Shown here in pieces: positions 9,143 through 63,743 of a DNA stretch of 64,000 nucleotides. Origin of the DNA: Promethearchaeota archaeon. Lineage in GTDB: Archaea; Asgardarchaeota; Lokiarchaeia; Sigyniarchaeales; SOKP01. The DNA is taken from the NCBI GenBank assembly GCA_016839765.1, contig JAEOTP010000015.1, forward strand, positions 93,474-157,473. The letters run 5' to 3'. Each line of letters opens with the position of its first letter. The first letter of the stretch is position 1. Both the position numbers and the translations under genes were made by a program. The notes under the pieces were generated by a model. The model made no database searches and had not been told where the DNA came from. It worked only from the letters and a program-made list of their open reading frames with translations.

Positions 9143-10504
9143 GTGCCAAGTAAGCTTAAAAAAAATATTCCTTGGGTAGAAAAATACCGTCCTCAATCTA
9201 TTAATGATATGGCTTTACCGACAGCTAAAATTAAAGGGCATAAAGTAAAACTAAATGAAGATTTAAAAAATTTCATCGAGTATTTCTTCAAAGAAATAGA
9301 GCAAATTAATATTAAGAATAGAAAAATTAGGCAATTTAATCGAACTCATCTGGAAAAAGAGCAAAAAGAGGTATTAAAAATTGCCCCAGAAAAAGCCGCA
9401 ATCCTTCTTGAGGGGCCTCCAGGAGTCGGTAAAACTTCTATAGTGTATGCTTTGGCCAATGATTTAAATATGCAGGTCATCGAAACTAATGCCTCTGATA
9501 CTAGGACAAAAGCTAACTTAGAAGCTAAGTTAAAAGAAACTGTAAAAACTAGAGGAATAATGGATTATATTATGGAAAGTAAACGTAAATTAATACTTAT
9601 TGATGAGGTTGATGGTATTTATGGAGTTTCTGATCGAGGAGCATTACCTACTATTTTAAATTTAATTGAAAGCACTCAGTTTCCAATAATTTTATGTTCA
9701 AATGAATATAAACAGAATTTACAACCAATATATAATAAAATTAAAAAGTATGAGATTAATCCTCTTCCAGATCAAGAAATTTTAAGAGTTGCGAAAAGAA
9801 TACTTAAAGAAGAAAAGATTTCTGATTTAAGTGAGGAGGATTTACATTTAATTATTGAAAAAAATAATGGAGATCTTAGAGGAACCATTAATGATATACA
9901 AGCATTAAGTCAGGGGGTTATGGATAAAGAATATAAAGATTTAATATTGAAATTACACAGAGATAGTTATGAAGAGATTTTTAAATTAATAAGAGATTTA
10001 TTTCAAAAAGTAAGAACCCTTAAGGAAGCTCGCGGTTTAACTGATAAATCTGATGTTGATTATAACTTTCTTTATAAATGGGTGAATGAAAATCTACCTA
10101 ATTTTATTAATCTTAAGAATGAAATTACCAATGCATATGATAATCTATCAATTGCAGATGAAATTTTTGGGAGAATAAGGAGAAATCAATATTGGTCACT
10201 TTTACCTTATTTCTACGATCTTTTTGCTGGGGGTGTTGCTTTATCCAAGTCTGATAAATCTTCCAAACCCGGATTTCGAAGAGTTTCCTTTCCTCGATAT
10301 AGAACCTCTGGGTTTTTCGCAGTAACAGCCACTGAAAAATTATTTACTGAAAAAATACAAGAAAAATATAATATTTCTGAGAGGGAAATAATTCAGGATT
10401 TTCTCCCATTTTTAAGGACACTTTGTAGAAGCTCAAGAAGACAGTTAAAAGAGATAGCAGAATGGCTAGAATTAGACGCAAAAGAGAAAAAATTATTAAA
10501 ATAA
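9143..10504 (+). CDS. rfcL: Replication factor C large subunit
   Basis: IPWVEKYRPQ, Walker A GPPGVGKTS, ETNASD, Walker B LILIDEVDG, GDLRGTIND. I prefer the GTG at 9143, preceded by GGTGA at 9134-9138 and lying just after the upstream stop. The track ORF opens at 9110. Confidence 0.85.
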   Translation: MPSKLKKNIPWVEKYRPQSINDMALPTAKIKGHKVKLNEDLKNFIEYFFKEIEQINIKNRKIRQFNRTHLEKEQKEVLKIAPEKAAILLEGPPGVGKTSIVYALANDLNMQVIETNASDTRTKANLEAKLKETVKTRGIMDYIMESKRKLILIDEVDGIYGVSDRGALPTILNLIESTQFPIILCSNEYKQNLQPIYNKIKKYEINPLPDQEILRVAKRILKEEKISDLSEEDLHLIIEKNNGDLRGTINDIQALSQGVMDKEYKDLILKLHRDSYEEIFKLIRDLFQKVRTLKEARGLTDKSDVDYNFLYKWVNENLPNFINLKNEITNAYDNLSIADEIFGRIRRNQYWSLLPYFYDLFAGGVALSKSDKSSKPGFRRVSFPRYRTSGFFAVTATEKLFTEKIQEKYNISEREIIQDFLPFLRTLCRSSRRQLKEIAEWLELDAKEKKLLK

Positions 10505-11642: not shown

Positions 11643-12905
11643 ATGATTGTATCAAAAGAAATTCAAGATTTTTTATTAAATGATGCATTAGAAAGATTTT
11701 TAAGATATGTTAAGGTATGGACAACCTCGGATGAGAGCTCTACTTCTTTGCCATCGACAAATAATCAATTAGAACTTGCAAAAAAGTTAGTAGAAGAATT
11801 AAAACAACTTGGTTTAGAAGATGTTATTCTAGATGAGTTGGGATTTGTTTATGCTTATCTTCCACCAAATCAAGGTTTTGAACACGCTAAGCCTATAGGT
11901 TTTTTAGCACACTTAGATACCGCCTCTAGCGTAAGTGGTAAAGACGTAAAACCTGTTATACATAGAAATTATAATGGAAGTGAAATTAAATTTGCTGCTG
12001 ATAAGGAGTTACTCTTAACTACTAATGATTCACCTCAATTAAAGGAATATATTGGTCTAGATATAATTACCACACAAGGAGATACTCTGTTAGGAGCTGA
12101 TGATAAAGCTGGAATTGCTGAAATTATAGCCGCGTGTTCCGCTTGGAAAAAATTCCCAGAATTAAAGCATGGTCCAATAATTATATGCTTTACTCCTGAT
12201 GAGGAAATTGGCAAAGGTATTGATAATATCAATGAGAAAAAATTAGCTAAAATTTGTTATACAATAGATGGAGGAGAAATGGGAGAATTAGTATTTGAAT
12301 GTTTTGATGCATGGCTCGCTACTATTAAATTTAAAGGTTTAAGTGTTCATCCGGGGTATGCTAAAAGTTTGATGATTAATACAATCCAAATTGCTAGTAG
12401 ATTTTTTAGTGAACTTCCTGAATCTGAATCACCTGAGCATACAGAAAATAGAGAAGGTTATTTTTATTTAACAAGATTGCAAGGAACAACTGAGGAATCA
12501 AATGCGCGGTTATTAATTAGAGATTTTGAACAAAAAAATAACCAGAGACGAGTTGATTATCTAAAAAATTTAAAAAAGACTTATGAAATACGCTATCCTG
12601 GTTTAGTTATCGAAATAGATTTTCTTCATCAATATGAAAATATGTTAAAATTTATAGAAAAGAAACCAATTATTGTTAATTTAGCTAAAAAAGCAATTGA
12701 AAAAACAGGGTTAAAAGTAAAACTTCAACCAATAAGAGGAGGAACAGATGGAGCTCGATTGAGTGCAAAAGGAATTCTTACGCCAAACATTTTTACAGGA
12801 GGATTATTTGCTCACTCCAGAAAAGAATATATACCAACTCTAGCCTTACAGAAAACTGCTGAAGTTATACTTTATTTAGCTGAATTATGGACTGAAGATC
12901 AATGA
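11643..12905 (+). CDS. pepT: Peptidase T (M20B tripeptide aminopeptidase)
   Basis: ERFLRYVKVWTTSDESS N-terminus, metal ligands in HLDT, GADDKAGIAEI and DEEIGKG, and C-terminal IRGGTDGARLS...TGG..HS..E. Confidence 0.85.
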   Translation: MIVSKEIQDFLLNDALERFLRYVKVWTTSDESSTSLPSTNNQLELAKKLVEELKQLGLEDVILDELGFVYAYLPPNQGFEHAKPIGFLAHLDTASSVSGKDVKPVIHRNYNGSEIKFAADKELLLTTNDSPQLKEYIGLDIITTQGDTLLGADDKAGIAEIIAACSAWKKFPELKHGPIIICFTPDEEIGKGIDNINEKKLAKICYTIDGGEMGELVFECFDAWLATIKFKGLSVHPGYAKSLMINTIQIASRFFSELPESESPEHTENREGYFYLTRLQGTTEESNARLLIRDFEQKNNQRRVDYLKNLKKTYEIRYPGLVIEIDFLHQYENMLKFIEKKPIIVNLAKKAIEKTGLKVKLQPIRGGTDGARLSAKGILTPNIFTGGLFAHSRKEYIPTLALQKTAEVILYLAELWTEDQ

Positions 12906-31940: not shown

Positions 31941-32624
31941 TTAATTTTTTATATTAAATTTTAATTTTGATACTTTAACCCCTGCGGGTTTCAATATAGC
32001 GTTATTAAAATAATAACCTTTATCTAATTCTTCAATAATAGTATTTTCAGGGAGATTGTCGTTCGCTTCAACCATAAGAGCTTCATGTTTATAAGGATCA
32101 AATTTTTGTCCTTCACATTTCATCTCTCTTACTCCCTCTACTTCGAGAAATTTTTCAAAGTTCTTCATAATCATCTCAAACCCTTTTTTTACTTGCTCAC
32201 TATTTTCTAAGGTTTCTAAGATTTTTAATGCCCGTTGTAAATCTTCATAATGTTTAATCAATTTTTTTAGTATTTCTTCCTTTATTCTCATCTTGTACCT
32301 TTCATTTTCACGATGATTTGATTTCTTATAATTTTCGAAATCAGCTTGTACTCTTACGAGTGAATTTAAATATTTTTCTGTCTTCTCCTCTAAATCTTTA
32401 AGCTTTCTACCATCATCTCTCATTTCCTCAAGTTGTCTGTGTAATTCTGATTTTTTAGCTTCGATGTCTTTAAATTTCTTAACTAAAGTCCCATATTTTT
32501 CAGCAATTTCTCTCAATTGCCTATATTGGTTTTTAGATATTGTAATCTTGCTATAAGGGTCCTCTAATGACCTCCGAGCATTGGAAAATTCATCATAAAA
32601 GTCTTCAAATACCATTTTTTTCAA
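31941..32624 (-). CDS. grpE: Nucleotide exchange factor GrpE
   Basis: Long N-terminal coiled coil, RVQADFENYKKS (GrpE R-x-x-A-[DE]-F-x-N-[YF]-[RK]-K-R-like) and a C-terminal beta domain (FDPYKHEAL). TTG at 32624; alternative ATG at 32615. Confidence 0.85.
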   Translation of the reverse strand: MKKMVFEDFYDEFSNARRSLEDPYSKITISKNQYRQLREIAEKYGTLVKKFKDIEAKKSELHRQLEEMRDDGRKLKDLEEKTEKYLNSLVRVQADFENYKKSNHRENERYKMRIKEEILKKLIKHYEDLQRALKILETLENSEQVKKGFEMIMKNFEKFLEVEGVREMKCEGQKFDPYKHEALMVEANDNLPENTIIEELDKGYYFNNAILKPAGVKVSKLKFNIKN

Positions 32625-32631
32625 TTTATTT

Positions 32632-32670
32632 TTGTCAATTAACTTTTATTGTCAATTCATGGTTGACAAT
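32632..32670. promoter_or_regulatory. Candidate operator: three TTGTCAA/TTGACAA boxes, including an 8-bp perfect inverted repeat
   Basis: TTGTCAA at 32632-32638 and 32649-32655; TTGACAA at 32663-32669. ATTGTCAA (32648-32655) and TTGACAAT (32663-32670) form a perfect inverted repeat with a 7-nt spacer. The boxes lie between the putative TATA box and the grpE start. Confidence 0.4.
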
Positions 32671-53767: not shown

Positions 53768-56272
53768 ATGGATGAGATAAAAGTTGTTGGAGCAAGAATC
53801 CATAATTTGAAAAACATAAATGTTAATATCCCGAAGGGAAAGATGATTCTTATTACGGGAGTCTCAGGCTCAGGTAAATCAAGCTTGGCATTTGATATCA
53901 TATTTGATGAGGGAATGAATCGATATCTTCAATCTATCGGCTTTCCACCTAAGTTTGAAGATGAGAAGCCTTTTGATTTAATTGAAGGTCTAAGTCCCAC
54001 GATAGCAGTGGAACAAAGAACTACACGTGTATTTAATCCACGCTCTACTGTTGGAACTAAAACAGGAATTTATGGTTTACTCAGAATGCTTTATGCTACT
54101 GAAGGTATTTTGATATGCCCTATTTGTAAGGAACCAGTTAATAATAATCTAGAATGCGATTTGTGTGGGATGGTCGTAGAAAGGAAGCAAATTAAACATT
54201 TTTCGTTTAATGAACCCTCTGGTATGTGCCTATCATGTAAAGGTAGGGGGTATACTATGCATATTACGGAGGATTTAATCGTTCAAGATAATAATAGAAA
54301 CTTAATTCAAATAACAAAAGCAGGTTCAGCTGTTTTTGCTGATCAAATTCGCTTTGTTGAACAATTACCAAGATTTTACGATTTTGACATTAAGACACCG
54401 TATAAAGATTTACCAGATAATATAAAACAGGTGTTTTTATATGGTAGTGGTAAAAAATTACCTTTTGAGTGGGACTCAAAGACATTTACAGGAATATTAG
54501 AAAGAGTGTTTGAAGGAATTATTCCGCATGTAAAGCGTGCTCTCGCAGAGTCAAAAAGTGCATATAGAAGACATAAAATTCATGAAAATTTCATGTCAAT
54601 GAAAAAATGTGAAGAATGTGATGGTTATCGAATAAATGAACAAGCTAGAGAGGTTAAAATCGCAGGAAAACATGTTGGTGAGCTAGCTATGATGACTATG
54701 GATGAATTGATAGTATTTTTGGAAAGCATTAGTGAAGAACATGTGAGAAGTCCACAAGGTGAATCAATGTTAGATAGTTTATTAGAGGGTTTAAAACGTA
54801 TGATTAATGTTGGTCTCTCATACCTACATTTAAATCGTTCTTTACCTACATTAAGTGGTGGTGAACTACAACGATTATCTCTTATGACTCATTTAGATGC
54901 TGGTCTTGATTCTCTTATTTATATATTAGATGAACCCAGCATGAGTTTACATGAAAAAGAGAAGGAATCATTAATTGATATATTAAAAGAATTGAAAGAT
55001 TTAGGAAATACGGTAATCATTGTTGAGCATGATAAACGTTTTATAGATATTGCTGATGAAATAATAGATATTGGTCCAGGAGCGGGTGTTAATGGGGGTG
55101 AGATAGTTTATCAAGGCTCGATTGATGGAATAATAGAAGTTGAAAATTCTTACACTGGTCAATTTTTAGCTGGTAATATTAAATTACCTGAAAAACCCAT
55201 AGAAGAACGTAAGATTATTAACACAAACACAAAATTTCTTACAATTAGAAATGTAAAAACAAACAACCTAAAAGATATTTCAGTTAAAATTCCATTGGGA
55301 ATGATGGTAGGTATTGCTGGGGTTTCAGGATCTGGGAAAAGTTCTCTAATATTGGATACACTAGTACCACTGATAAAACCATTTTTCAAAAGAGGTGCTG
55401 AAATAAAGCAAATGAAAAAGGAGAATAATAATGAAAACGAGGAAAATGATAAAGACCTTTTAGAATATTCTGGAATTATAGAAGGATGGGAAAATGTAGA
55501 TGAAGTCATTGTTGTCAACCAAAAGCCAATTTCAAGGGTAAGAACCTCGACACCTTGCTCTTTTATCGGGATTTGGGAAAAAATTAGAAATATATTTGCT
55601 AAAACTCCTGAGGCAAAAAGGAGAAAATATAAAGCGGGACATTTTTCTTATAATTCTGATAACGGAAGATGTCCTGTTTGCCGAGGTAATGGTGTTCAAG
55701 ATTTACAAATATCATTTCTTAGTAGCTTCACAATCCCATGTAAGGAATGTAAAGGTATGAGATATAAGCCGGAAATCTTAGAAGTTAAATATAAAGAAAA
55801 GACGATTTCAGAGGTGTTGGACATGACAGTAAGTGAGGCATTAGAACTTTTTAGATCCCAAACAAATATTTCCAATATATTAAAAATCCTTGATAGTATT
55901 GGTATGGGTTATATCACACTTGGACAACCAGCTCCAACATTAAGTGGGGGTGAGGCTCAGCGTATCAAACTAGCGAAAGAATTAGGAAAAGCACGTAAAG
56001 GTAATTCATTGTATATATTAGATGAACCTACAGTTGGTTTATCATTCTATGATGCTGTAAAGTTAATGGAATTACTCGAACAGCTTGTTAAAGAGGGAAA
56101 TAGTGTCATTATAATAGAGCATGATCCTCAAATCCTTGCTTATACTGACTATATTATTGAATTAGGACCTGAAGGAGGACCAAAAGGTGGAAAAGTTATT
56201 GCTAAAGGTAATCCAGAAGAAATAAAAAAATCTAAAGAATCTATAACAGCTGCTTATCTAAGTATAAGTTAG
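53768..56272 (+). CDS. UvrA-like ABC ATPase lacking the UvrB-binding domain (class II UvrA paralogue)
   Basis: 834 aa. UvrA N-terminus VVGARIHNLKNINVNIPKGKMILITGVSGSGKSSLAFD, two ABC modules (LSGGELQRL, ILDEPS; GVSGSGKSSL, LSGGEAQRIKLA, ILDEPT) and Zn modules. Only about 25 aa separate CPIC...CDLC from FSFNEPSGMCLSCKGRG (nt 54116-54247). Confidence 0.85.
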   Translation: MDEIKVVGARIHNLKNINVNIPKGKMILITGVSGSGKSSLAFDIIFDEGMNRYLQSIGFPPKFEDEKPFDLIEGLSPTIAVEQRTTRVFNPRSTVGTKTGIYGLLRMLYATEGILICPICKEPVNNNLECDLCGMVVERKQIKHFSFNEPSGMCLSCKGRGYTMHITEDLIVQDNNRNLIQITKAGSAVFADQIRFVEQLPRFYDFDIKTPYKDLPDNIKQVFLYGSGKKLPFEWDSKTFTGILERVFEGIIPHVKRALAESKSAYRRHKIHENFMSMKKCEECDGYRINEQAREVKIAGKHVGELAMMTMDELIVFLESISEEHVRSPQGESMLDSLLEGLKRMINVGLSYLHLNRSLPTLSGGELQRLSLMTHLDAGLDSLIYILDEPSMSLHEKEKESLIDILKELKDLGNTVIIVEHDKRFIDIADEIIDIGPGAGVNGGEIVYQGSIDGIIEVENSYTGQFLAGNIKLPEKPIEERKIINTNTKFLTIRNVKTNNLKDISVKIPLGMMVGIAGVSGSGKSSLILDTLVPLIKPFFKRGAEIKQMKKENNNENEENDKDLLEYSGIIEGWENVDEVIVVNQKPISRVRTSTPCSFIGIWEKIRNIFAKTPEAKRRKYKAGHFSYNSDNGRCPVCRGNGVQDLQISFLSSFTIPCKECKGMRYKPEILEVKYKEKTISEVLDMTVSEALELFRSQTNISNILKILDSIGMGYITLGQPAPTLSGGEAQRIKLAKELGKARKGNSLYILDEPTVGLSFYDAVKLMELLEQLVKEGNSVIIIEHDPQILAYTDYIIELGPEGGPKGGKVIAKGNPEEIKKSKESITAAYLSIS

Positions 56273-56408
56273 ACATATCATTCTTTTTTACAAATCTGTT
56301 TAATAATGCGCCTTAAGTCCAATTTGATTCAACAATTGAGATAATAATTTAAAAAGCCTCCAGTATATAAGAGATTAACATAAATTGTTCTTAATCAGGG
56401 AATATTTT

Positions 56409-57533
56409 ATGAAATTTAATAGAATAATATTATTTATTTTAGTTTTTTCTTGTCTATTCACAAAAATCAGTATTACTAACGGTGTTAGTACCCATTCCCC
56501 TAATCCTGTTCCTCAATCCTGTACAATATTTACAGCTACAGTAGGGGATAAGGTCTTTTTTGGAAATAGTGAAGATTACGATATGGAAGGAGTATATATA
56601 TGGCTTATTCCAAGTCAGGAAATTGACCCAGGAACCCCTGAGGGAAAGCAGCTAATGCATGGAGCAATATTTTTTGGATTTTATAATAATTCTTTTATAG
56701 GTGATGGAGTACCGCAGGGTGGGATGAATGATCAAGGTTTGTGTTATGATGCAAATGGACTACCAATCGCTCCCCTGAATGACCACCCCGAGCGAAATGA
56801 TACATACCCAGAAATACACGTTGGGTTTCAATGGTTATGGGAATTAACTACTGGTGAGGATGCTATTGAATTTTTTGAAAATTATTATTTTGGTACAGCC
56901 ATTGCAGCTCAGACTCACTTTGCTGATGCTACAGGGGATGCAGTAGTTGTGAGTGCAGGAACTGATGGAGAATTCGCCTATACGCGTATAAATGATTCAA
57001 ATTATTTGGTTTCAACTAATTTTAACTTAGCAAATCCATCAAATGGATGGTATCCTTGCGAGCGCTATGATACAGCATGTTCTATACTTGATGATATTAA
57101 CTCCGAAGAGGATCTCACTATTGACATTTGTCGGGATGTTTTAAATTCTGTAGCTATGTATCAAACCTGGTATAGCAATATTTTCGATCCTGTTAATCGT
57201 GATGTTTATCTTTATTATCATCACGATTTTACTAAAGTTGTTAAACTGAATTTAGATGATGAATTAGCCAAGATTGTCCCTGGGGCTCCTGAAGTTCAAT
57301 ATTTCGGATTTACACATGGTAGAATCTATCCCAGTGGGAATAAAAGTGGAATTATTGGTAAAATGATTCCAATTGCTGACTTATTTAAACCCGAGCCAAT
57401 TTACAGAATCATTATCGATGAAGAGACCATCTTAATAATCTCTTTGGTCGCAATTGGAATTGTTGGTGCAAGTTCATTAATAGTCTGGGTATTTGTTGAT
57501 GAAAAAAAGAAAGCGCGTGATAAAAGAAAGTGA
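56409..57533 (+). CDS. Secreted, C-terminally membrane-anchored Ntn-hydrolase-like protein (choloylglycine hydrolase / linear amide C-N hydrolase-like)
   Basis: Signal peptide MKFNRIILFILVFSCLF, candidate N-terminal nucleophile in SCTIFTATVGDKVFFGNSEDY, and a C-terminal TM helix plus basic tail (LVAIGIVGASSLIVWVFVDEKKKARDKRK). ATG at 56409 preferred over the TTG at 56385. Confidence 0.5.
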   Translation: MKFNRIILFILVFSCLFTKISITNGVSTHSPNPVPQSCTIFTATVGDKVFFGNSEDYDMEGVYIWLIPSQEIDPGTPEGKQLMHGAIFFGFYNNSFIGDGVPQGGMNDQGLCYDANGLPIAPLNDHPERNDTYPEIHVGFQWLWELTTGEDAIEFFENYYFGTAIAAQTHFADATGDAVVVSAGTDGEFAYTRINDSNYLVSTNFNLANPSNGWYPCERYDTACSILDDINSEEDLTIDICRDVLNSVAMYQTWYSNIFDPVNRDVYLYYHHDFTKVVKLNLDDELAKIVPGAPEVQYFGFTHGRIYPSGNKSGIIGKMIPIADLFKPEPIYRIIIDEETILIISLVAIGIVGASSLIVWVFVDEKKKARDKRK

Positions 57534-57607
57534 AACTCTAAGTATATCTATTCTTAACTTTTTTTTATTTCCTTTTATAAAAATTAAATTAAATGTTGTG
57601 ATAAAAT

Positions 57608-58222
57608 ATGCAAAATCTAAATAAGAAAGAATTTGAACCTGAAAGCCTTATTAATAAAGCAATAGAAGATCCTAACATATTAGCTGAATTGATAAATAAT
57701 CTTGTAGCTAAAGATGAAACTATTCGATATAATAGCCATAAAGTCTTATTAATTATAAGCCAGAATAAACCTAAAGTTCTTTATCCCCATTGGGATTTTT
57801 TTTCTGATTTGTTAAAAAGTCAAAACAATTTTCATAAAGTCATTGGAATTCAAATTCTCGCAAACCTTGCCAAAATTGACACTAAAAACAAGTTTGAAGA
57901 TATTTTTGATATTTATTGTAATTTACTTGACGCTAAAAGTGTAATGACAGCTGGTCATCTAGCAGCGAATTTAGGCATTATTGCTAAAGTAAAACCGAAC
58001 CTGAGAGATAAGTTAACTAATGTATTATTAAACATAGACAAGACACATCACGAATTAGGCCGCAAGGATTTAATAAAAGCATATATTATTGAATCTTTCT
58101 ATGAATACTTTAATGAAATCGAAGATAAGGGAGAAGTAATTGAATTTGTAAAAGCTCAATTAGATAGTAAAAGTCCTAAAACTAGAAAAGCAGCTGAAAA
58201 ATTTCTTAAAAAATATAACTAA
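57608..58222 (+). CDS. HEAT/ARM-like alpha-solenoid protein
   Basis: 204 aa, all-helical with repeated about 35-40 aa helix pairs. No specific family recognised. Confidence 0.5.
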   Translation: MQNLNKKEFEPESLINKAIEDPNILAELINNLVAKDETIRYNSHKVLLIISQNKPKVLYPHWDFFSDLLKSQNNFHKVIGIQILANLAKIDTKNKFEDIFDIYCNLLDAKSVMTAGHLAANLGIIAKVKPNLRDKLTNVLLNIDKTHHELGRKDLIKAYIIESFYEYFNEIEDKGEVIEFVKAQLDSKSPKTRKAAEKFLKKYN

Positions 58223-58247
58223 ACTTTATTTTTGAATAAGTATTCAT

Positions 58248-58267
58248 TTGTCGCATCACTGCGACAA
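58248..58267. terminator. Perfect 8-bp stem / 4-nt loop hairpin TTGTCGCA-TCAC-TGCGACAA between the HEAT gene and actin
   Basis: Read directly. Lies 26 nt after the 57608..58222 stop. Followed by TTGTGACAAC and TTTAAATA (58281-58288). It could equally be a protein-binding palindrome. Confidence 0.3.
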
Positions 58268-58460
58268 TCTTGTGACAACATTTAAATAGTCAAATTTATT
58301 TTATTATATTAAAATTATATGCTGTAATTAATCAATAGATGTTAAAGTAGTTCCTGGATTTAACAATAATTCAATTCTTATTAATAATTCAATATTTTAA
58401 GTTTCTATTGTGAAGAATTAGCATATAAGTTTGATATAATAATTCGTGGAGGAATAAATT

Positions 58461-59597
58461 ATGGAAGAATTGAAATTTAATAGGGCTATTATTTTAGATA
58501 ATGGAACAGGAATTTCTAAAAATGGTTATGGAGGAGAAGATCAACCGCGCTCGGTTTTTCCTACCATGATTGGAACCCCAAAATATGGAACTGTGATGCC
58601 TGATGTAAAACACTTTTCTAGAGAATATTATATTGGAGAAGAGGCAATGGAACTTAGAGGACTTTTGAATCTTAAATTTCCGATCGAACATGGTATTGTA
58701 GAAGATTGGCCTGCTATGGAAAAATTATGGCACTATACATATTATACTGACCTAAGAATTGATCCTTCAGAACATCCTATACTCCTTACAGAAGCACCAT
58801 TGAATCCAAGACAGAATAGAGAAAAAATAGCTGAAATCATGTTTGAGACATTTAATGTACCTGCATTGTACATTGCAATGCAAGCGGTGTTATCTTTATA
58901 TGCTTCAGGAAGAACAACAGGAACCGTGATAGATATTGGCGATGGAGTGTCTCATATTGTTCCAATTTATGAAGGATTTGCATTAAGCCATGCTATACAA
59001 AGAATAGATCTAGCCGGAAGAGACGTAACAAAATATTTGAAAAGGTTGTTAAGACAAAAAGGTTACTCATTTACCTCAAGTGCTGAAACTGAAATTGTAA
59101 GAGATATTAAAGAAAAGCTATGTTACGTGGCAATAGATCCAGAAAAAGAATTACTACTCTCTAAGAAAGTTGCTGGAATGGAAAAATTATATATGCTCCC
59201 GGATGGAGAAACAGTTAGTTTAGGAATAGAGAGATTTTTAGCTCCTGAATGTTTTTTCAATCCATCAGTGATAGGGAAAGAGTTAGACCCAATTGATGAT
59301 CTTATTGTAAGCGCTATATCTGAATGTGATGTTGACCTTCGAAGAGATCTTTATAGCAATATCGTATTATCTGGTGGTTCTACTATGTTTCCAGGTATTA
59401 AGGAAAGGTTAACAAAAGAAATAAAGGAAATGATTTCTGAATCCGTGGAAGTAAGAATTGTTAGTCCCCCAGAACGTATGTATTCAGTATGGATTGGAGG
59501 TTCAATTTTGGGCTCATTAAAGACATTTCATAGGATGTGGATTACGCGACGTGAATATAAAGAATTTGGTCCTACAATAATACACAGGTGTTTTTAA
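58461..59597 (+). CDS. Eukaryote-like actin (Asgard 'lokiactin'-type)
   Basis: 378 aa, collinear with eukaryotic actin: [87 protein letters not shown] and C-terminal [24 protein letters not shown] lies 8 nt upstream of the ATG. Confidence 0.92.
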
Positions 59598-59620
59598 TGA
59601 TATGGTTCAATATTTTTAAT

Positions 59621-59645
59621 TTTTATTTTATTTTATTTTATTTTA
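59621..59645 (+). repeat. (TTTTA)x5 microsatellite / oligo-T tracts; likely termination signal after actin
   Basis: Five perfect TTTTA units read directly, 24 nt after the actin stop and just before the GGAGG of the next gene. Confidence 0.8.
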
Positions 59646-59665
59646 AAAAAGGAGGTTAAGTAGAA

Positions 59666-60871
59666 TTGGAAAAAATTATCAACAGATTAGATAAATTTCT
59701 TACACCTGAATCTAGAATAATCTCAACGATCATTGTTGAAGGGAAGAAAAAAATTTGTTATTCATCTGATAATTGGGATATTACTGATGATATAGAAGAA
59801 ATTAATTCTTTATGGGATTCAAAAAAACTCGGAGAACTTTTTATTGATAATATTAAATACAAAATTATACAAGTCTCATCTGAAAGACTTGTTGCTATGA
59901 ATTTAGAGAAAAAGGGTAGTATCATTGGATTTAAGGATGATGAGAGGAGAATTATCTCTAGAATAGAACCTGGAGAAACTTTATTCTTAGGTTTAAGGGA
60001 TGCTTCAAGAACTTTAGGAGAGCTACGTAAAAAAGACCCTTATTTAGATCCGCATACAATTCTAGGCAAAATTAAAGAGATTAAATGGGCTACTCCAAAA
60101 GTCTTACTCAATGACACTCAAAACTTACAAAGATTAGGTTTATTGAAGGTTGGTTTAACACTTGAAGAGGCAAAAGTATATTTGGCTCTACTTCAGATTG
60201 GTGAAAAAGGAGAAAAGGTCGGAAATCTTAATAAAAAGCTGAATATTAAGAGAACGACAATTTATAGAATCATTGAACGCTTAATTAATAAAAGATGGGT
60301 TGATAAAGTCATGGAACGCCCAACAGGGACAACGATTTATGTTGCTAGACCTCTCAATGAGGTTATTGATAATATAATTAGTGAAAGGGAAGATGAGTTA
60401 AATATTCTTAAATCTTTTAGATATATAATGGGAGAGAGCTCAGAAAATGGCTGGATTGATGTTTCAAAAGAGTATAATACTTTAGGAATAATTGGAGTGG
60501 ATAAAGATTGTGGACTTATTATATTTGAATATGATAAAGCTGTGAAAGAAGAAGTCATCATTCAAGCAGCTTTACAACTATCATATGAGAAACTAAAAGG
60601 ACATTTACAGCCTGATTCTGAAAAAGAAGAATTTTCAAATGCGGATTTGAAGGATATCAAAATCACTCAAGTTACAATTGATAATTACTTTGGTGCAATT
60701 ATGTATTTAAAATTTAAAGAGGGTTCTAAAACAGCAAACAATATCGGAACTGATTGGATTGTAGCGGCAAAACACCTTGCAATACCTCTAGAAGATAAAA
60801 TTTATGTAATTTGGGGTTCAGAAGAAAAATTTCCAATATTATTGAGTATAATCTTAGTGAAACTAAGATGA
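59666..60871 (+). CDS. TrmB-type wHTH regulator with a profilin-like/roadblock-like N-terminal domain and an uncharacterised C-terminal domain
   Basis: TTG start 10 nt after GGAGG. aa ~158-235, LGLLKVGLTLEEAKVYLALLQIGEKGEKVGNLNKKLNIKRTTIYRIIERLINKRWV...YVARPLNEVIDNII, is a TrmB-family HTH. aa 1-~125 form an alpha/beta domain containing STIIVEGKKKICYSS...DNIKYKIIQVSSERLVAMNLEKKGSIIGF. Confidence 0.7.
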   Translation: MEKIINRLDKFLTPESRIISTIIVEGKKKICYSSDNWDITDDIEEINSLWDSKKLGELFIDNIKYKIIQVSSERLVAMNLEKKGSIIGFKDDERRIISRIEPGETLFLGLRDASRTLGELRKKDPYLDPHTILGKIKEIKWATPKVLLNDTQNLQRLGLLKVGLTLEEAKVYLALLQIGEKGEKVGNLNKKLNIKRTTIYRIIERLINKRWVDKVMERPTGTTIYVARPLNEVIDNIISEREDELNILKSFRYIMGESSENGWIDVSKEYNTLGIIGVDKDCGLIIFEYDKAVKEEVIIQAALQLSYEKLKGHLQPDSEKEEFSNADLKDIKITQVTIDNYFGAIMYLKFKEGSKTANNIGTDWIVAAKHLAIPLEDKIYVIWGSEEKFPILLSIILVKLR

Positions 60872-60902
60872 TTTAAAAAGAAAAGATTTTTAAGAATTTT
60901 TC

Positions 60903-61367
60903 TTAAAAATGAGGAATTTCGGGATGTTTCTTTGCCTCCTCATAAATAGGACCTTTAGCAATGAAACCAAGTGCCAAGCCACTGCCTCTTCCAACTAGTA
61001 AATTGTCATTTATTTTAATTTTAAAAGCTATTAAAGTTTTTTGTGGAATTTTTATAATTCCCCTCTTGTAGATTCTAATCCAACAGTAATTTTTTTCTTT
61101 TATTTTAAATAATTTTCCTTCTTCTAATCGGTGATTTATTAATTCAGGGAATCCTTCTAACATTTTTCCAATTGGACTACTTCTTAATAGACGACTTGAA
61201 CTTAATCCAAAACCACCTGAACGTTTACTTCCAGACATTAAGATACCTTTTTCGTCTTCATTAAATTTATACTCAAAATAAGCTTCTTCTGGTATTATTA
61301 TTTTACCATTTTCCCCTACTTTTGACCATCCAAATATATATTTCCCACCTTTTACTAGTTGAGGCAT
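60903..61367 (-). CDS. Hypothetical protein, possibly a duplicated AbrB/SpoVT-like swapped-hairpin domain
   Basis: 154 aa. Two segments (ENGKIIIPEEAYFEYKF..EKGILM and KRGIIKIPQKTLIAFKIKINDNLLV) resemble the G-x-[IV]-x-IP...L motif of AbrB-like domains. Weak assignment. Confidence 0.35.
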   Translation of the reverse strand: MPQLVKGGKYIFGWSKVGENGKIIIPEEAYFEYKFNEDEKGILMSGSKRSGGFGLSSSRLLRSSPIGKMLEGFPELINHRLEEGKLFKIKEKNYCWIRIYKRGIIKIPQKTLIAFKIKINDNLLVGRGSGLALGFIAKGPIYEEAKKHPEIPHF

Positions 61368-61381
61368 GTAATCCTTCGTTT

Positions 61382-61951
61382 TTATTTTTCTCTGATGATA
61401 CTTTTATAAAAAATAGATATTAATCTTTCACGTTCATTAGCAATTTTCTTTGAGACATCTAAATACATTTTATTTCTCAATTTCATTATTTTATTTTCCA
61501 AATGCTCAATGACTTGATCAACTCCCCCCCTACTTTTAACCGTAAATCCTATTGTACGATATAAACCAATAGCTCCTAATGCATCTAATTTATCAGCATC
61601 AGATAAAATTTTTGCTTCCAGAGTTTTAGGTTTTATCTCGTTTGAAAAAGAATGAGCCCTTATACAATGAATAATATTCTCAATATCCTCTTTAGGGAGA
61701 TCAAAAGTAGCTAAAAAATTATTTGCTAGCTCTGCAGAAATTTCAGCATGATTTCTTTTAAAAGCTTTTACTCCTTCTTTATTTCTTCCAACATCATGAA
61801 GTAATGCCGCGATTTTCAGTATTTTAATATCCGCATCAAATTTTTTTCCTATTTTAAGAGATAAATCATATACTCTTTCAACATGAGGAAATCCATGAAT
61901 ATCATCAGATTCGGAGTTTTCTCTCGCAAACTTACGAATTGTTTCCAACAT
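61382..61951 (-). CDS. HD-domain metal-dependent phosphohydrolase
   Basis: HGFPHVERV, AALLHDVGR and SDADKLDALG are the H...HD...D motifs. Confidence 0.8.
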   Translation of the reverse strand: MLETIRKFARENSESDDIHGFPHVERVYDLSLKIGKKFDADIKILKIAALLHDVGRNKEGVKAFKRNHAEISAELANNFLATFDLPKEDIENIIHCIRAHSFSNEIKPKTLEAKILSDADKLDALGAIGLYRTIGFTVKSRGGVDQVIEHLENKIMKLRNKMYLDVSKKIANERERLISIFYKSIIREK

Positions 61952-62054
61952 ACCTTATTTTACCATCAAAAGTCAAAATTATAAAATAATAAATTTCTAT
62001 AAAGAGAAAAAGAATAAAAAAGAGTTGATTAAAAATTAATAGTTTTCGAGGAGA

Positions 62055-63743
62055 TTAAACTTCTTCTCCCCTTCTTTTTGCTTCAATATCTTTCAATTCT
62101 TTCCTTTGAACCTTACCAACTAAGGTTTCTGGAAGTTCTTTTCTAAATTCAATGAATTTTGGAACTTTATATGCAGCAACATTTTGTCTGCAGAATTCCT
62201 TAATTTCACTTTTAATTTCTTCACTTTCTTGATATCCATCTTTTAATACAACATATGCTTTTACTTTTTCGCTGCCGCGGAGATCTGGGTCAGGAATTCC
62301 TATTATAGCAACATTTTCTATTGCTTCATGTTCAAACAAAACATCCTCAAGTTCTCGAGGGTAAACCTTAAAACCACTTACATTTATCATATCTTTCTTT
62401 CGATCAACAATGTAAAAATAGCCATCCTCATCCATTTTTCCTATATCTCCAGTTAGTACCCACTCACCTTTCAATTGATTGGCTGTTTCCTCTGGCTTAT
62501 TCCAATAACCTTTCATTACTTGTGGTCCTTTTATCATTATTTCTCCTGCCTCTCCAAGAGGAACTATTTTTGTATAATCCTCAATATCGACTATTTTTAC
62601 TTCGGTGTCAGGTATTGGCATTCCCACAGAGCCGATCTTTCTTTCTCCACCTATAGGATTACTGTGGGTTACTGGCGAAGTTTCTGTCATTCCGTATCCT
62701 TCTATTACTTTTCCACCAGTTCTTTCTTCAAATTCCTTAATAACTTCAGGAGGCATTGGTGCTGCACCTGTATTGCAAATTCTTATTGATTTAAGATCTT
62801 TAGCATAATCTTCTAAATCATCTCTTTCTAGTAAACGCATATACATTGTGGGAACTCCTGGAAACATTGAAGGTTGTGTTGATTTAATTATTTCAAATAA
62901 CGATTTTTGGTCTCGAGGATCTGGATTTAAAGCAATTGTTGAGGCGTTATATATATGTATATTCATGCAGACTGTTTGACCATAGATATGAAAAAGTGGT
63001 AAATTTGTTAGGATAGTTTCTTTACCTCTGCTTGAATCTTGACCAATCCAAGCAAGTGTTGCAAGAGAATTTGAAACTAGATTATAATGAGTTAACATAG
63101 CGCCTTTAGGCACTCCAGTTGTACCTCCTGTGAATTGAAGACTTGCAATATCTTCTTTTGCGTTAGTTTCAAATTTAGGAGGATTTGGTTTTGTATCTTC
63201 AATTAGATTGAGGAATTGTTTAGTTCCTGATATTTCAGCAGGATTTCGTGGAGCCATTGGAGAATAATCTAAAACATTTGTAATTATAACATGTCTTAGA
63301 CGTGTTCTATCCCTAACCTTATTAATTTTATCTACTTGGTTATCCCAAGCAATAATTATTTCTGCTCCAGAATCATTTAATTGATAAGCTAACTCATGTT
63401 CAGTGTGGAGAGTGCTCACACAAGTAGCTATTCCACCAGCTTTTAATATTCCATAATAACTCATTATAAATTGAGGAAAATTTGGAATCATTATCGCAAC
63501 AATATCACCTTTTTTAACACCTAAATTAATAAGAGCTGTTGCTAGTCTATCAGCTATATCTTTCAACTTTTTATAAGAAATCTTATTTTTCATAAACCAT
63601 ATTGCTGTACGACTACTAAAATCTTTTGCCGCATTATCTAAAAACTCATAGAGATTTATTTCAGGATAATCTATATGAGCTGGAACGCCCTCGTCGTAGT
63701 TCTTTACCCAAGGCTTTGAAGCATATGGATTTTCTTCACTCAT
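62055..63743 (-). CDS. fadD: Long-chain/medium-chain acyl-CoA ligase (AMP-forming, FadD-like)
   Basis: AMP-binding motif FTGGTTGVPKGAMLTH, then GYGMTE, TGDIGKMDEDGYFYIVDRKKD, and C-terminal lysine motif LVGKVQRKEL. Confidence 0.9.
   Translation of the reverse strand: MSEENPYASKPWVKNYDEGVPAHIDYPEINLYEFLDNAAKDFSSRTAIWFMKNKISYKKLKDIADRLATALINLGVKKGDIVAIMIPNFPQFIMSYYGILKAGGIATCVSTLHTEHELAYQLNDSGAEIIIAWDNQVDKINKVRDRTRLRHVIITNVLDYSPMAPRNPAEISGTKQFLNLIEDTKPNPPKFETNAKEDIASLQFTGGTTGVPKGAMLTHYNLVSNSLATLAWIGQDSSRGKETILTNLPLFHIYGQTVCMNIHIYNASTIALNPDPRDQKSLFEIIKSTQPSMFPGVPTMYMRLLERDDLEDYAKDLKSIRICNTGAAPMPPEVIKEFEERTGGKVIEGYGMTETSPVTHSNPIGGERKIGSVGMPIPDTEVKIVDIEDYTKIVPLGEAGEIMIKGPQVMKGYWNKPEETANQLKGEWVLTGDIGKMDEDGYFYIVDRKKDMINVSGFKVYPRELEDVLFEHEAIENVAIIGIPDPDLRGSEKVKAYVVLKDGYQESEEIKSEIKEFCRQNVAAYKVPKFIEFRKELPETLVGKVQRKELKDIEAKRRGEEV

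Follow-up and report, generated by a model that had tools for sequence, protein, structure and literature searches.

The Gene Pair and the Domains of the Regulator

We analyzed a 64,000-nucleotide (nt) stretch of an Asgard archaeal genome (Promethearchaeota archaeon, assembly GCA_016839765.1, contig JAEOTP010000015.1), hereafter called the window, which is AT-rich (~30% G+C) and contains a Lokiactin gene followed by a gene for a putative DNA-binding protein of 401 amino acids (aa), here called the regulator. An original prediction had read the regulator as a profilin-like or roadblock-like domain joined to a TrmB-type DNA-binding domain and had placed the start of its open reading frame (ORF) 69 nt past the actin stop codon on the same strand. 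This placement was right, since the ORF coordinates leave a gap of 68 nt between the two genes. The features of the pair and of the actin promoter, including the transcription factor B recognition element (BRE), are as follows.

58248..58267: candidate operator, a 20-base-pair (bp) perfect palindrome, TTGTCGCAtcacTGCGACAA, the window clade's variant of TTGTCAC-N6-GTGACAA
58270..58278: TTGTGACAA, a 9-bp palindrome that holds the promoter-proximal GTGACAA and lies over the expected position of the BRE
58281..58288, plus strand: archaeal TATA box, TTTAAATA, ~173 nt 5' of the actin ATG
58461..59597, plus strand: Lokiactin gene, 378 aa (Pfam Actin, E 1.2e-130)
59613..59645, plus strand: T-rich tract 3' of the actin stop codon, from its sequence a possible partial archaeal terminator
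59650-59655: Shine-Dalgarno sequence of the regulator, AGGAGG, ~10 nt 5' of its TTG start
59666..60871, plus strand: regulator, 401 aa, TTG start (ORF listing)
59666..60031, plus strand: profilin domain, residues 1-122 (phmmer, family profile, AlphaFold2 model, Foldseek, and sub-threshold PF00235 matches in relatives)
60032..60115, plus strand: linker, residues 123-150 (highly conserved sequence, low model confidence)
60116..60352, plus strand: TrmB-type winged helix-turn-helix (wHTH), residues 151-229 (Pfam, family alignment, AlphaFold2)
60353..60433, plus strand: long helix, residues 230-256 (AlphaFold2 helix 230-255, TrmB architecture)
60509..60868, plus strand: C-terminal alpha/beta domain, residues 282-401 (AlphaFold2, conservation)

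Judged by its sequence and its predicted fold, the N-terminal domain of the regulator is a genuine profilin domain. When the whole protein was compared with the sequences in the PDB using phmmer, four significant matches were obtained (E 9e-6 to 9e-5), and all were Asgard profilins aligned within residues 2-103: 5zza from Odin, 5zzb and 5yed/5yee from Loki, and 7pbh from Thor archaea. A profile of 21 N-terminal domains from the family found the same proteins in the PDB with far lower E values (5yed, 6e-16; 5zzb, 2e-14; 5zza, 3e-12; 7pbh, 2e-9) and had no significant match there besides Asgard profilins. The Pfam profilin family PF00235 matched 6 of these 21 domains below threshold, with a best E value of 5.9e-4. 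An AlphaFold2 model of the regulator, made from 28 homologues, had a mean confidence score (pLDDT) of ~80 over residues 15-120 and placed helices at residues 2-11, 40-52, and 106-121 and strands at residues 18-25, 29-33, 57-60, 63-70, 74-78, 85-90, and 94-100, the same order of alpha and beta elements that had been claimed for residues 1-125. A Foldseek search of the PDB with this model returned the profilin fold. Ranks 1-44 were all profilins, those of Asgard archaea first and then those of yeast, plants, and amoebae, and the best match was 5zza_P, the Odin profilin from its complex with actin (E 5e-7, TM score 0.76). The profilin-like reading of the original prediction is thus supported by both sequence and structure searches.

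The most conserved positions of the domain are Y32, N36, W37, W50, Y65, Q69, G88, F89, D91, and R94, among them those of a beta-4 signature, KYxxIQ, and of the beta-6/beta-7 hairpin (G88, F89, D91, and R94). The tryptophan of the NW motif corresponds to the conserved tryptophan of profilins, W53 in a Heimdall profilin and W32 in the human protein (PMC8410842). The signature K64-Y65-x-x-I68-Q69 agrees with KYxVIQ, the classical strand sequence in profilins from plants and yeast. In canonical profilins this strand presumably lies on the actin-binding face, and its mapping onto the regulator would place the conserved positions on the corresponding face.

The DNA-binding domain had been claimed at residues ~158-235, and it was found there: the TrmB wHTH family (PF01978) matched residues 160-229 with an E value of 1.2e-11 and 44.8 bits, against a cut-off of 25.6, and was the sole family recognized in a Pfam scan of the window protein. 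The recognition helix, KRTTIYRI, is invariant in the family. Between the profilin domain and the wHTH lies a linker whose pattern, PY...LGK...KW-TPK-L, is near-invariant across the family (conserved residues P125, Y126, L133, G134, K135, K140, W141, T143, P144, and L147) and which was modeled as disordered, with pLDDT values below 50; this linker possibly serves as a binding motif or folds upon binding. Two further parts had been overlooked in the original prediction. The helix at residues 230-255 is, by the model and by analogy to TrmB, probably a coiled-coil dimerization helix. The domain at residues ~282-401, preceded by a variable stretch, is compact when modeled alone (pLDDT 81, predicted TM score [pTM] 0.75) and is a candidate second effector or oligomerization domain. 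A profile of this C-terminal domain had no match among PDB sequences, and its model gave nothing below an E value of 1e-3 in Foldseek, where weak, mutually consistent matches were to sandwiches of the PsbP, DcrB, and EagT6 types (TM scores 0.3-0.4). That it is an internal duplicate of the N-terminal domain was ruled out by hhalign, which gave a probability of 0.2%.

Conservation of the Pair and of a Candidate Operator at the Actin Promoter

A protein database contained 167 homologues of the regulator. The 120 that were listed are mostly full length (400-474 aa, with few shorter fragments) and have identities of 45-95%; they are named in the database only "helix-turn-helix domain-containing," "TrmB," "MarR," or hypothetical. 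Because the homologues share the whole architecture, it is not a product of chance. Gene order was then surveyed using one genome per species, which gave 49 loci, 45 of them with a full-length homologue. Actin was directly upstream of the regulator on the same strand in 43 of the 45, and the remaining two lie at or near a contig end and could not be judged. The linkage persists where the regulators are only 37-45% identical, and the genes flanking the pair differ between loci. These results demonstrate that the synteny of actin with this gene, raised in the original prediction as a matter for other Asgard genomes, is conserved.

Of the genomes fetched, the one closest to the window is a metagenome-assembled genome (MAG) of the Promethearchaeia (Loki lineage), whose regulator and actin are 95% and 99% identical, respectively, to those of the window. 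The actins of related genome loci are 77-99% identical to that of the window, with the exception of that of locus L044 (60%), where the actin (1583-2722) has an internal gap and its ORF stops early, at 307 aa. At two loci (L046, 10001-10321, and L047, 10001-10294), all that remains of the regulator is its final ~100 residues, directly after the upstream genes and with no actin gene there, the result of either deletion or misassembly. Several loci (L003, L004, L005, L011, L023, L031, L040, and L047) and proteins (P0019, P0027, P0041, P0044, and P0045) bear NCBI phylum labels such as Hod-, Hermod-, Odin-, or Thorarchaeota that are suspect. The UvrA proteins of L003 and L005 are 94-95% identical to that of the window despite their other phylum label, and regulators from MAGs labeled as other phyla are 80-83% identical to those of MAGs labeled Promethearchaeota; the labels do not agree with these identities and look unreliable. 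No name of a cultured strain (MK-D1 or Lokiarchaeum ossiferum) appeared among the matches listed for the family.

Actin and the regulator are separated by either a short gap (45-130 nt) or a long one (225-600 nt), and where the gap is long, at about half of the loci (L012-L015, L017-L024, L027-L029, L032, L035, L038, L039, and L043-L045), it contains a conserved ORF of 59-77 aa. This small ORF is found, for example, at the following positions.

L012, ~9750-9947: small ORF between actin and regulator
L018, ~9755-9950: small ORF between actin and regulator
L045, 9466-9666 and 9676-9870: two small ORFs between actin and regulator

Its product begins with M-x-R/K-I-K-x-I-D-G-I-P-C-I-x-L-D-E-G and has a C-terminal helix ending in VL-D/E-E-L/I-KKKFGEK, and it had no match in Pfam or the PDB. 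The "helix + LKKKF" end recalls the actin-monomer motifs of WH2 domains and thymosin, and the actin cluster may include this small ORF as a third gene. The window's clade does not have it.

Of 42 regions upstream of actin, 40 contain the sequence GTGACAA, which in every case precedes a perfect TATA box, TTTAAATA, by 2-3 nt. Six bases farther upstream, most loci have an inverted partner, TTGTCAC, giving TTGTCAC-N6-GTGACAA, and certain loci have additional upstream TTGTCAC half-sites. This candidate operator keeps its place in the promoter in 40 of the 42 regions, and the TATA box next to it is kept in nearly all loci. Both half-sites have been altered symmetrically in the window clade, from CAC/GTG to CGC/GCG, and a relative (L006) retains GTGTCACAtcatTGTGACAG. 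We counted the palindrome, permitting one mismatch per half-site, in 811 kb comprising the window and the loci. There were 40 occurrences, approximately one per locus and nearly all at actin promoters; the others were two weak matches in the window, one of them before grpE, and two 5' of a paralog of the regulator that lacks the profilin domain. The possibility that GTGACAA is a generic BRE was ruled out, as none of the 31 other TTTAAATA sites in the window is preceded by it. We also scanned 241 million metagenome records for exact matches to TTGTCAC-N5/6-GTGACAA-N2/3-TTTAAATA, and 37 stretches were found. For 34 of these, the start of an actin gene lies 71-220 nt downstream, in the orientation of the TATA box; the remaining three contigs stop within 241 nt and are too short to be judged. 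All 13 metagenome contigs that were long enough had the regulator after actin. These results demonstrate that the palindromic candidate operator abuts the TATA box of actin and is essentially exclusive to the actin promoter. One contig, L070, is chimeric, with ~65 actin codons followed from ~nt 430 by high-GC genes of bacterial type. A search of Rfam with positions 58100-59750 of the window gave no match, and an RNA element is unlikely because the palindrome sits upstream of the TATA box.

Paralogs, Other Fusions, and Neighboring Genes

In seven loci, paralogs of 293-303 aa sit a few kilobases from the regulator and consist of the wHTH, the helix, and the same C-terminal domain, without the profilin domain. 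The profilin domain has thus been added to a preexisting regulator module. These paralogs are preceded, ~50-100 nt upstream of their start, by a palindrome of their own, TTGTCAA-N6-TTGACAA, and the similarity of this sequence to the actin operator suggests that this wHTH family reads TTGTCAC-like palindromes. Next to the paralog, in divergent orientation, is a gene for a class I methyltransferase. The window contains neither such a paralog nor a stand-alone profilin in its 64 kb. Upstream of its grpE gene (31941-32624, minus strand), by 25 nt, is a palindrome at 32649-32669, TTGTCAAttcatggTTGACAA, which is unrelated to the actin operator; its half-sites resemble those of the paralog's operator, and it is probably the operator of a heat-shock regulator.

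The profilin-like domain was found in other proteins as well. A word-indexed homologue search with the N-terminal domain alone gave one fragment, and an exhaustive profile search was used instead. It yielded no more than 136 cluster representatives, which include free profilin-sized proteins, the regulator fusion, and fusions to Ras GTPases, leucine-rich repeat (LRR) proteins, multiple wHTH domains, and SIR2. Examples of the paralogs and of these fusions are listed below.

L037, 12078-12959: profilin-less paralog, its palindrome at 12013-12032
L018, 17733-18644: profilin-less paralog
L046, 15079-15098: palindrome of a profilin-less paralog
P0146, P0159, P0200, P0204: Ras-family GTPase with the profilin-like domain at its C terminus
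P0205: LRR protein with the profilin-like domain
P0235: multi-wHTH protein of 734 aa with the profilin-like domain
P0147 (L051, 5001-6227): SIR2 with the profilin-like domain

The divergent matches P0145 and P0147 have other architectures and no actin nearby. The SIR2 fusion is part of a three-gene insert (SIR2, a protein of 494 aa without a known function, and profilin-SIR2) inside a ribosomal-protein operon, and this insert looks like a defense-type cassette.

The wider neighborhood of the actin-regulator pair in the window (53768-63743) is conserved in close relatives. On its 5' side are uvrA, a 382-aa ORF without a Pfam match, and a gene for a HEAT-like protein of 204 aa; its 3' side has, on the minus strand, an ORF of 154 aa without a Pfam match and then ORFs provisionally labeled as HD-domain and acyl-CoA synthetase proteins. 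The HD-labeled ORF (61382-61951) is retained in most loci, often 3' of the regulator on the opposite strand.

A Proposed Actin-Sensing Regulator and Its Alternatives

We lean toward the view that this protein is a TrmB-like regulator with an added N-terminal profilin domain, dedicated to the adjacent lokiactin gene, and that its profilin domain reports monomeric actin. The regulator would bind, as a dimer, to the 20-bp palindrome abutting the actin TATA box, and the two profilin domains of the dimer would bind monomeric lokiactin. Occupancy by actin would alter DNA binding or the access of TFB and TBP and so tie actin transcription to the pool of free monomers. The 68-nt spacer of the window clade is T-rich and contains a ribosome-binding site for the regulator gene, features suggesting expression by read-through from the actin promoter; this would put the regulator under the same control and close the loop. 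The outcome would be negative feedback on actin synthesis, functionally analogous to that of G-actin, MRTF, and SRF. The idea of a feedback regulator, part of the original prediction, is one that we continue to infer, and it has been strengthened because the palindromic candidate operator is essentially exclusive to the actin promoter. That the regulator itself and not another factor occupies this operator, and that its profilin domain still binds actin, we likewise infer. The sign of the regulation can be read in two ways. In the TrmB family, sites upstream of the BRE and TATA box activate and sites downstream repress, a precedent by which a site upstream of the TATA box suggests activation, and overlap with the BRE suggests repression, since a bound regulator could exclude TFB.

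Several results weigh against this view. The distribution of the pair is secure for the Loki lineage only (Promethearchaeota in the sense of NCBI). The Pfam scan found no match whatsoever between the window protein and PF00235; the sequence conservation of Asgard profilins is reported to be weak (PMC8410842). The arrangement of the domains relative to each other was modeled with low confidence (pTM of the whole model, 0.36), and neither the conserved linker nor the C-terminal domain is accounted for by the proposed mechanism. The operator may be bound by a factor other than the regulator. Finally, the profilin-like domain could be a general adaptor or sensor module, because it also occurs, away from actin, in fusions with Ras GTPases, SIR2, and LRR proteins.

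In an alternative that we regard as unlikely but deserving of serious weight, the actin promoter is regulated by this TrmB-like protein, but the profilin-like domain has lost the ability to bind actin. It would instead sense a phosphoinositide, a proline-rich partner, or another protein, or would only aid oligomerization, and actin expression would follow an external signal and not the actin pool. The promiscuity of the domain, which occurs with Ras-family GTPases, SIR2, and LRRs in proteins without actin nearby, is consistent with this, as are the missing PF00235 match of the window protein and the reported binding of phosphatidylinositol 4,5-bisphosphate (PIP2) and, for some, polyproline by Asgard profilins (PMC8410842). 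Against it, the linkage to the actin gene is exclusive and deep, and the closest relatives of the domain in both sequence and fold are Asgard profilins crystallized on actin. The strands that would correspond to the actin-contact face of canonical profilins are also conserved.

A second alternative, which we consider quite improbable, is that the protein acts as an adaptor between DNA and actin, instead of or besides acting as a transcription factor, with palindrome-bound profilin domains holding the barbed ends of actin monomers or filaments and linking a site on the chromosome to the cytoskeleton. Such a physical coupler would give Loki-type archaea an actin-based positioning or segregation of DNA like that of ParMRC, a prospect to which we assign the same low probability. 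In a milder form, the protein would be plentiful and sequester actin monomers, and its DNA binding would serve as a readout of the actin pool. The layout of the locus is that of parC-parM-parR: a DNA site at the promoter, the gene for actin or an actin-like protein, and then a gene for a DNA-binding protein that possibly contacts that protein. The extra upstream TTGTCAC half-sites of some loci would also fit. ParR, however, has a ribbon-helix-helix fold, recognizes an array of repeats, and uses a C-terminal peptide to contact ParM, whereas the regulator family has a wHTH facing one or two palindromes, with no array of iterated repeats, and its contact module would be the profilin domain. A site abutting the TATA box also suits a regulatory role. 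In Lokiarchaeum ossiferum, Lokiactin is GNAMCCOK_03343 (mean log2 of 21.7 in the proteome), and the next-numbered gene, GNAMCCOK_03344, possibly the ortholog of the regulator, has a mean log2 of 20.7 (bioRxiv 10.1101/2025.11.30.690169). Such abundance would be high for a transcription factor and is a tentative lead toward the adaptor.

Two further explanations were set aside. It is very unlikely that the gene stands next to actin without functional significance and that its product controls unrelated genes, and we rejected this explanation, as the order is kept in 43 of 45 genome loci and in 13 of 13 informative metagenome contigs while the flanks vary. Least credible of all is a Roadblock/LC7-type N-terminal domain linking the regulator to small GTPases, which the original prediction had held to be equally possible: roadblock and profilin domains have a similar alpha/beta sandwich, and a 96-residue axonemal chain, which we take to be a roadblock light chain, appeared at Foldseek rank 46 (E 8e-3), but this was the only chain of roadblock size, behind 44 ranks of profilins, no PF03259 match was found in the window protein or the 21 family members, of which six matched PF00235, and the sequence profile matched profilins only, so that this alternative can be dropped.

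The preferred reading, an actin-sensing regulator of the actin gene, draws together several known systems without being identical to any of them. With Asgard profilins, the regulator domain shares sequence homology, the predicted fold, the NW motif, and the KY-x-x-I strand, and it aligns end to end with the Odin profilin. Those proteins are free and ~120-145 aa long, whereas the domain here forms the N-terminal part of a DNA-binding protein of 401 aa; its alignment with Loki profilins stops at ~residue 87, before the Loki loop, and it has an invariant FKDxER hairpin of its own. With TrmB and TrmBL1 of P. furiosus and with Tgr of T. kodakarensis, the regulator shares the PF01978 wHTH, the long helix, and a C-terminal domain that does not bind DNA. 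TrmBL1 and Tgr bind the Thermococcales glycolytic motif (TGM), TATCAC-N5-GTGATA. The candidate operator resembles this motif in its inverted repeat, in the TCAC/GTGA core, and in lying beside the BRE and TATA box, but has a spacer of N6 in place of N5. Unlike in TrmB, the C-terminal domain is not the sugar-binding effector (it had no match in Pfam or the PDB), and unlike in the TrmB family as a whole, there is an extra profilin domain and the apparent target is a cytoskeletal gene and not sugar metabolism.

The proposed logic is shared with MRTF (MAL) and SRF, namely, a transcription regulator with a module for binding monomeric actin, through which actin expression follows the G-actin pool. 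MRTF has RPEL motifs, shuttles to and from the nucleus, and acts through SRF. The regulator has no homology to it, being a profilin fold fused to a DNA-binding domain in a cell without a nucleus, and no RPEL family was found in the Pfam scan at E<=1, so the likeness is functional only. Profilin fusions known from Asgard archaea are the ProGel proteins, the profilin-gelsolin fusions of Thor, Heimdall, and Odin archaea, in which an Asgard profilin domain is likewise fused to a second module, in their case an actin-binding gelsolin domain and not a DNA-binding domain. Neither a profilin-wHTH fusion nor an operator at an Asgard actin promoter was found in the literature searched. The parts of the regulator come from known families, and the novelty lies in how they are combined, in the constant placement of the gene next to actin, and in the dedicated operator.

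Annotation of these proteins as "helix-turn-helix" or as a "TrmB sugar regulator" conceals a component of the cytoskeleton, and the occurrence of the Asgard profilin fold here and in fusions to Ras GTPases, SIR2, and LRR proteins marks it as a reusable module. Taken together, the above-described results suggest that these archaea adjust the expression of their actin gene to the pool of free actin. If this is true, the regulator would be the first candidate for feedback from cytoskeleton to gene in a prokaryote, and the logic of MRTF and SRF would have been reached with unrelated parts.

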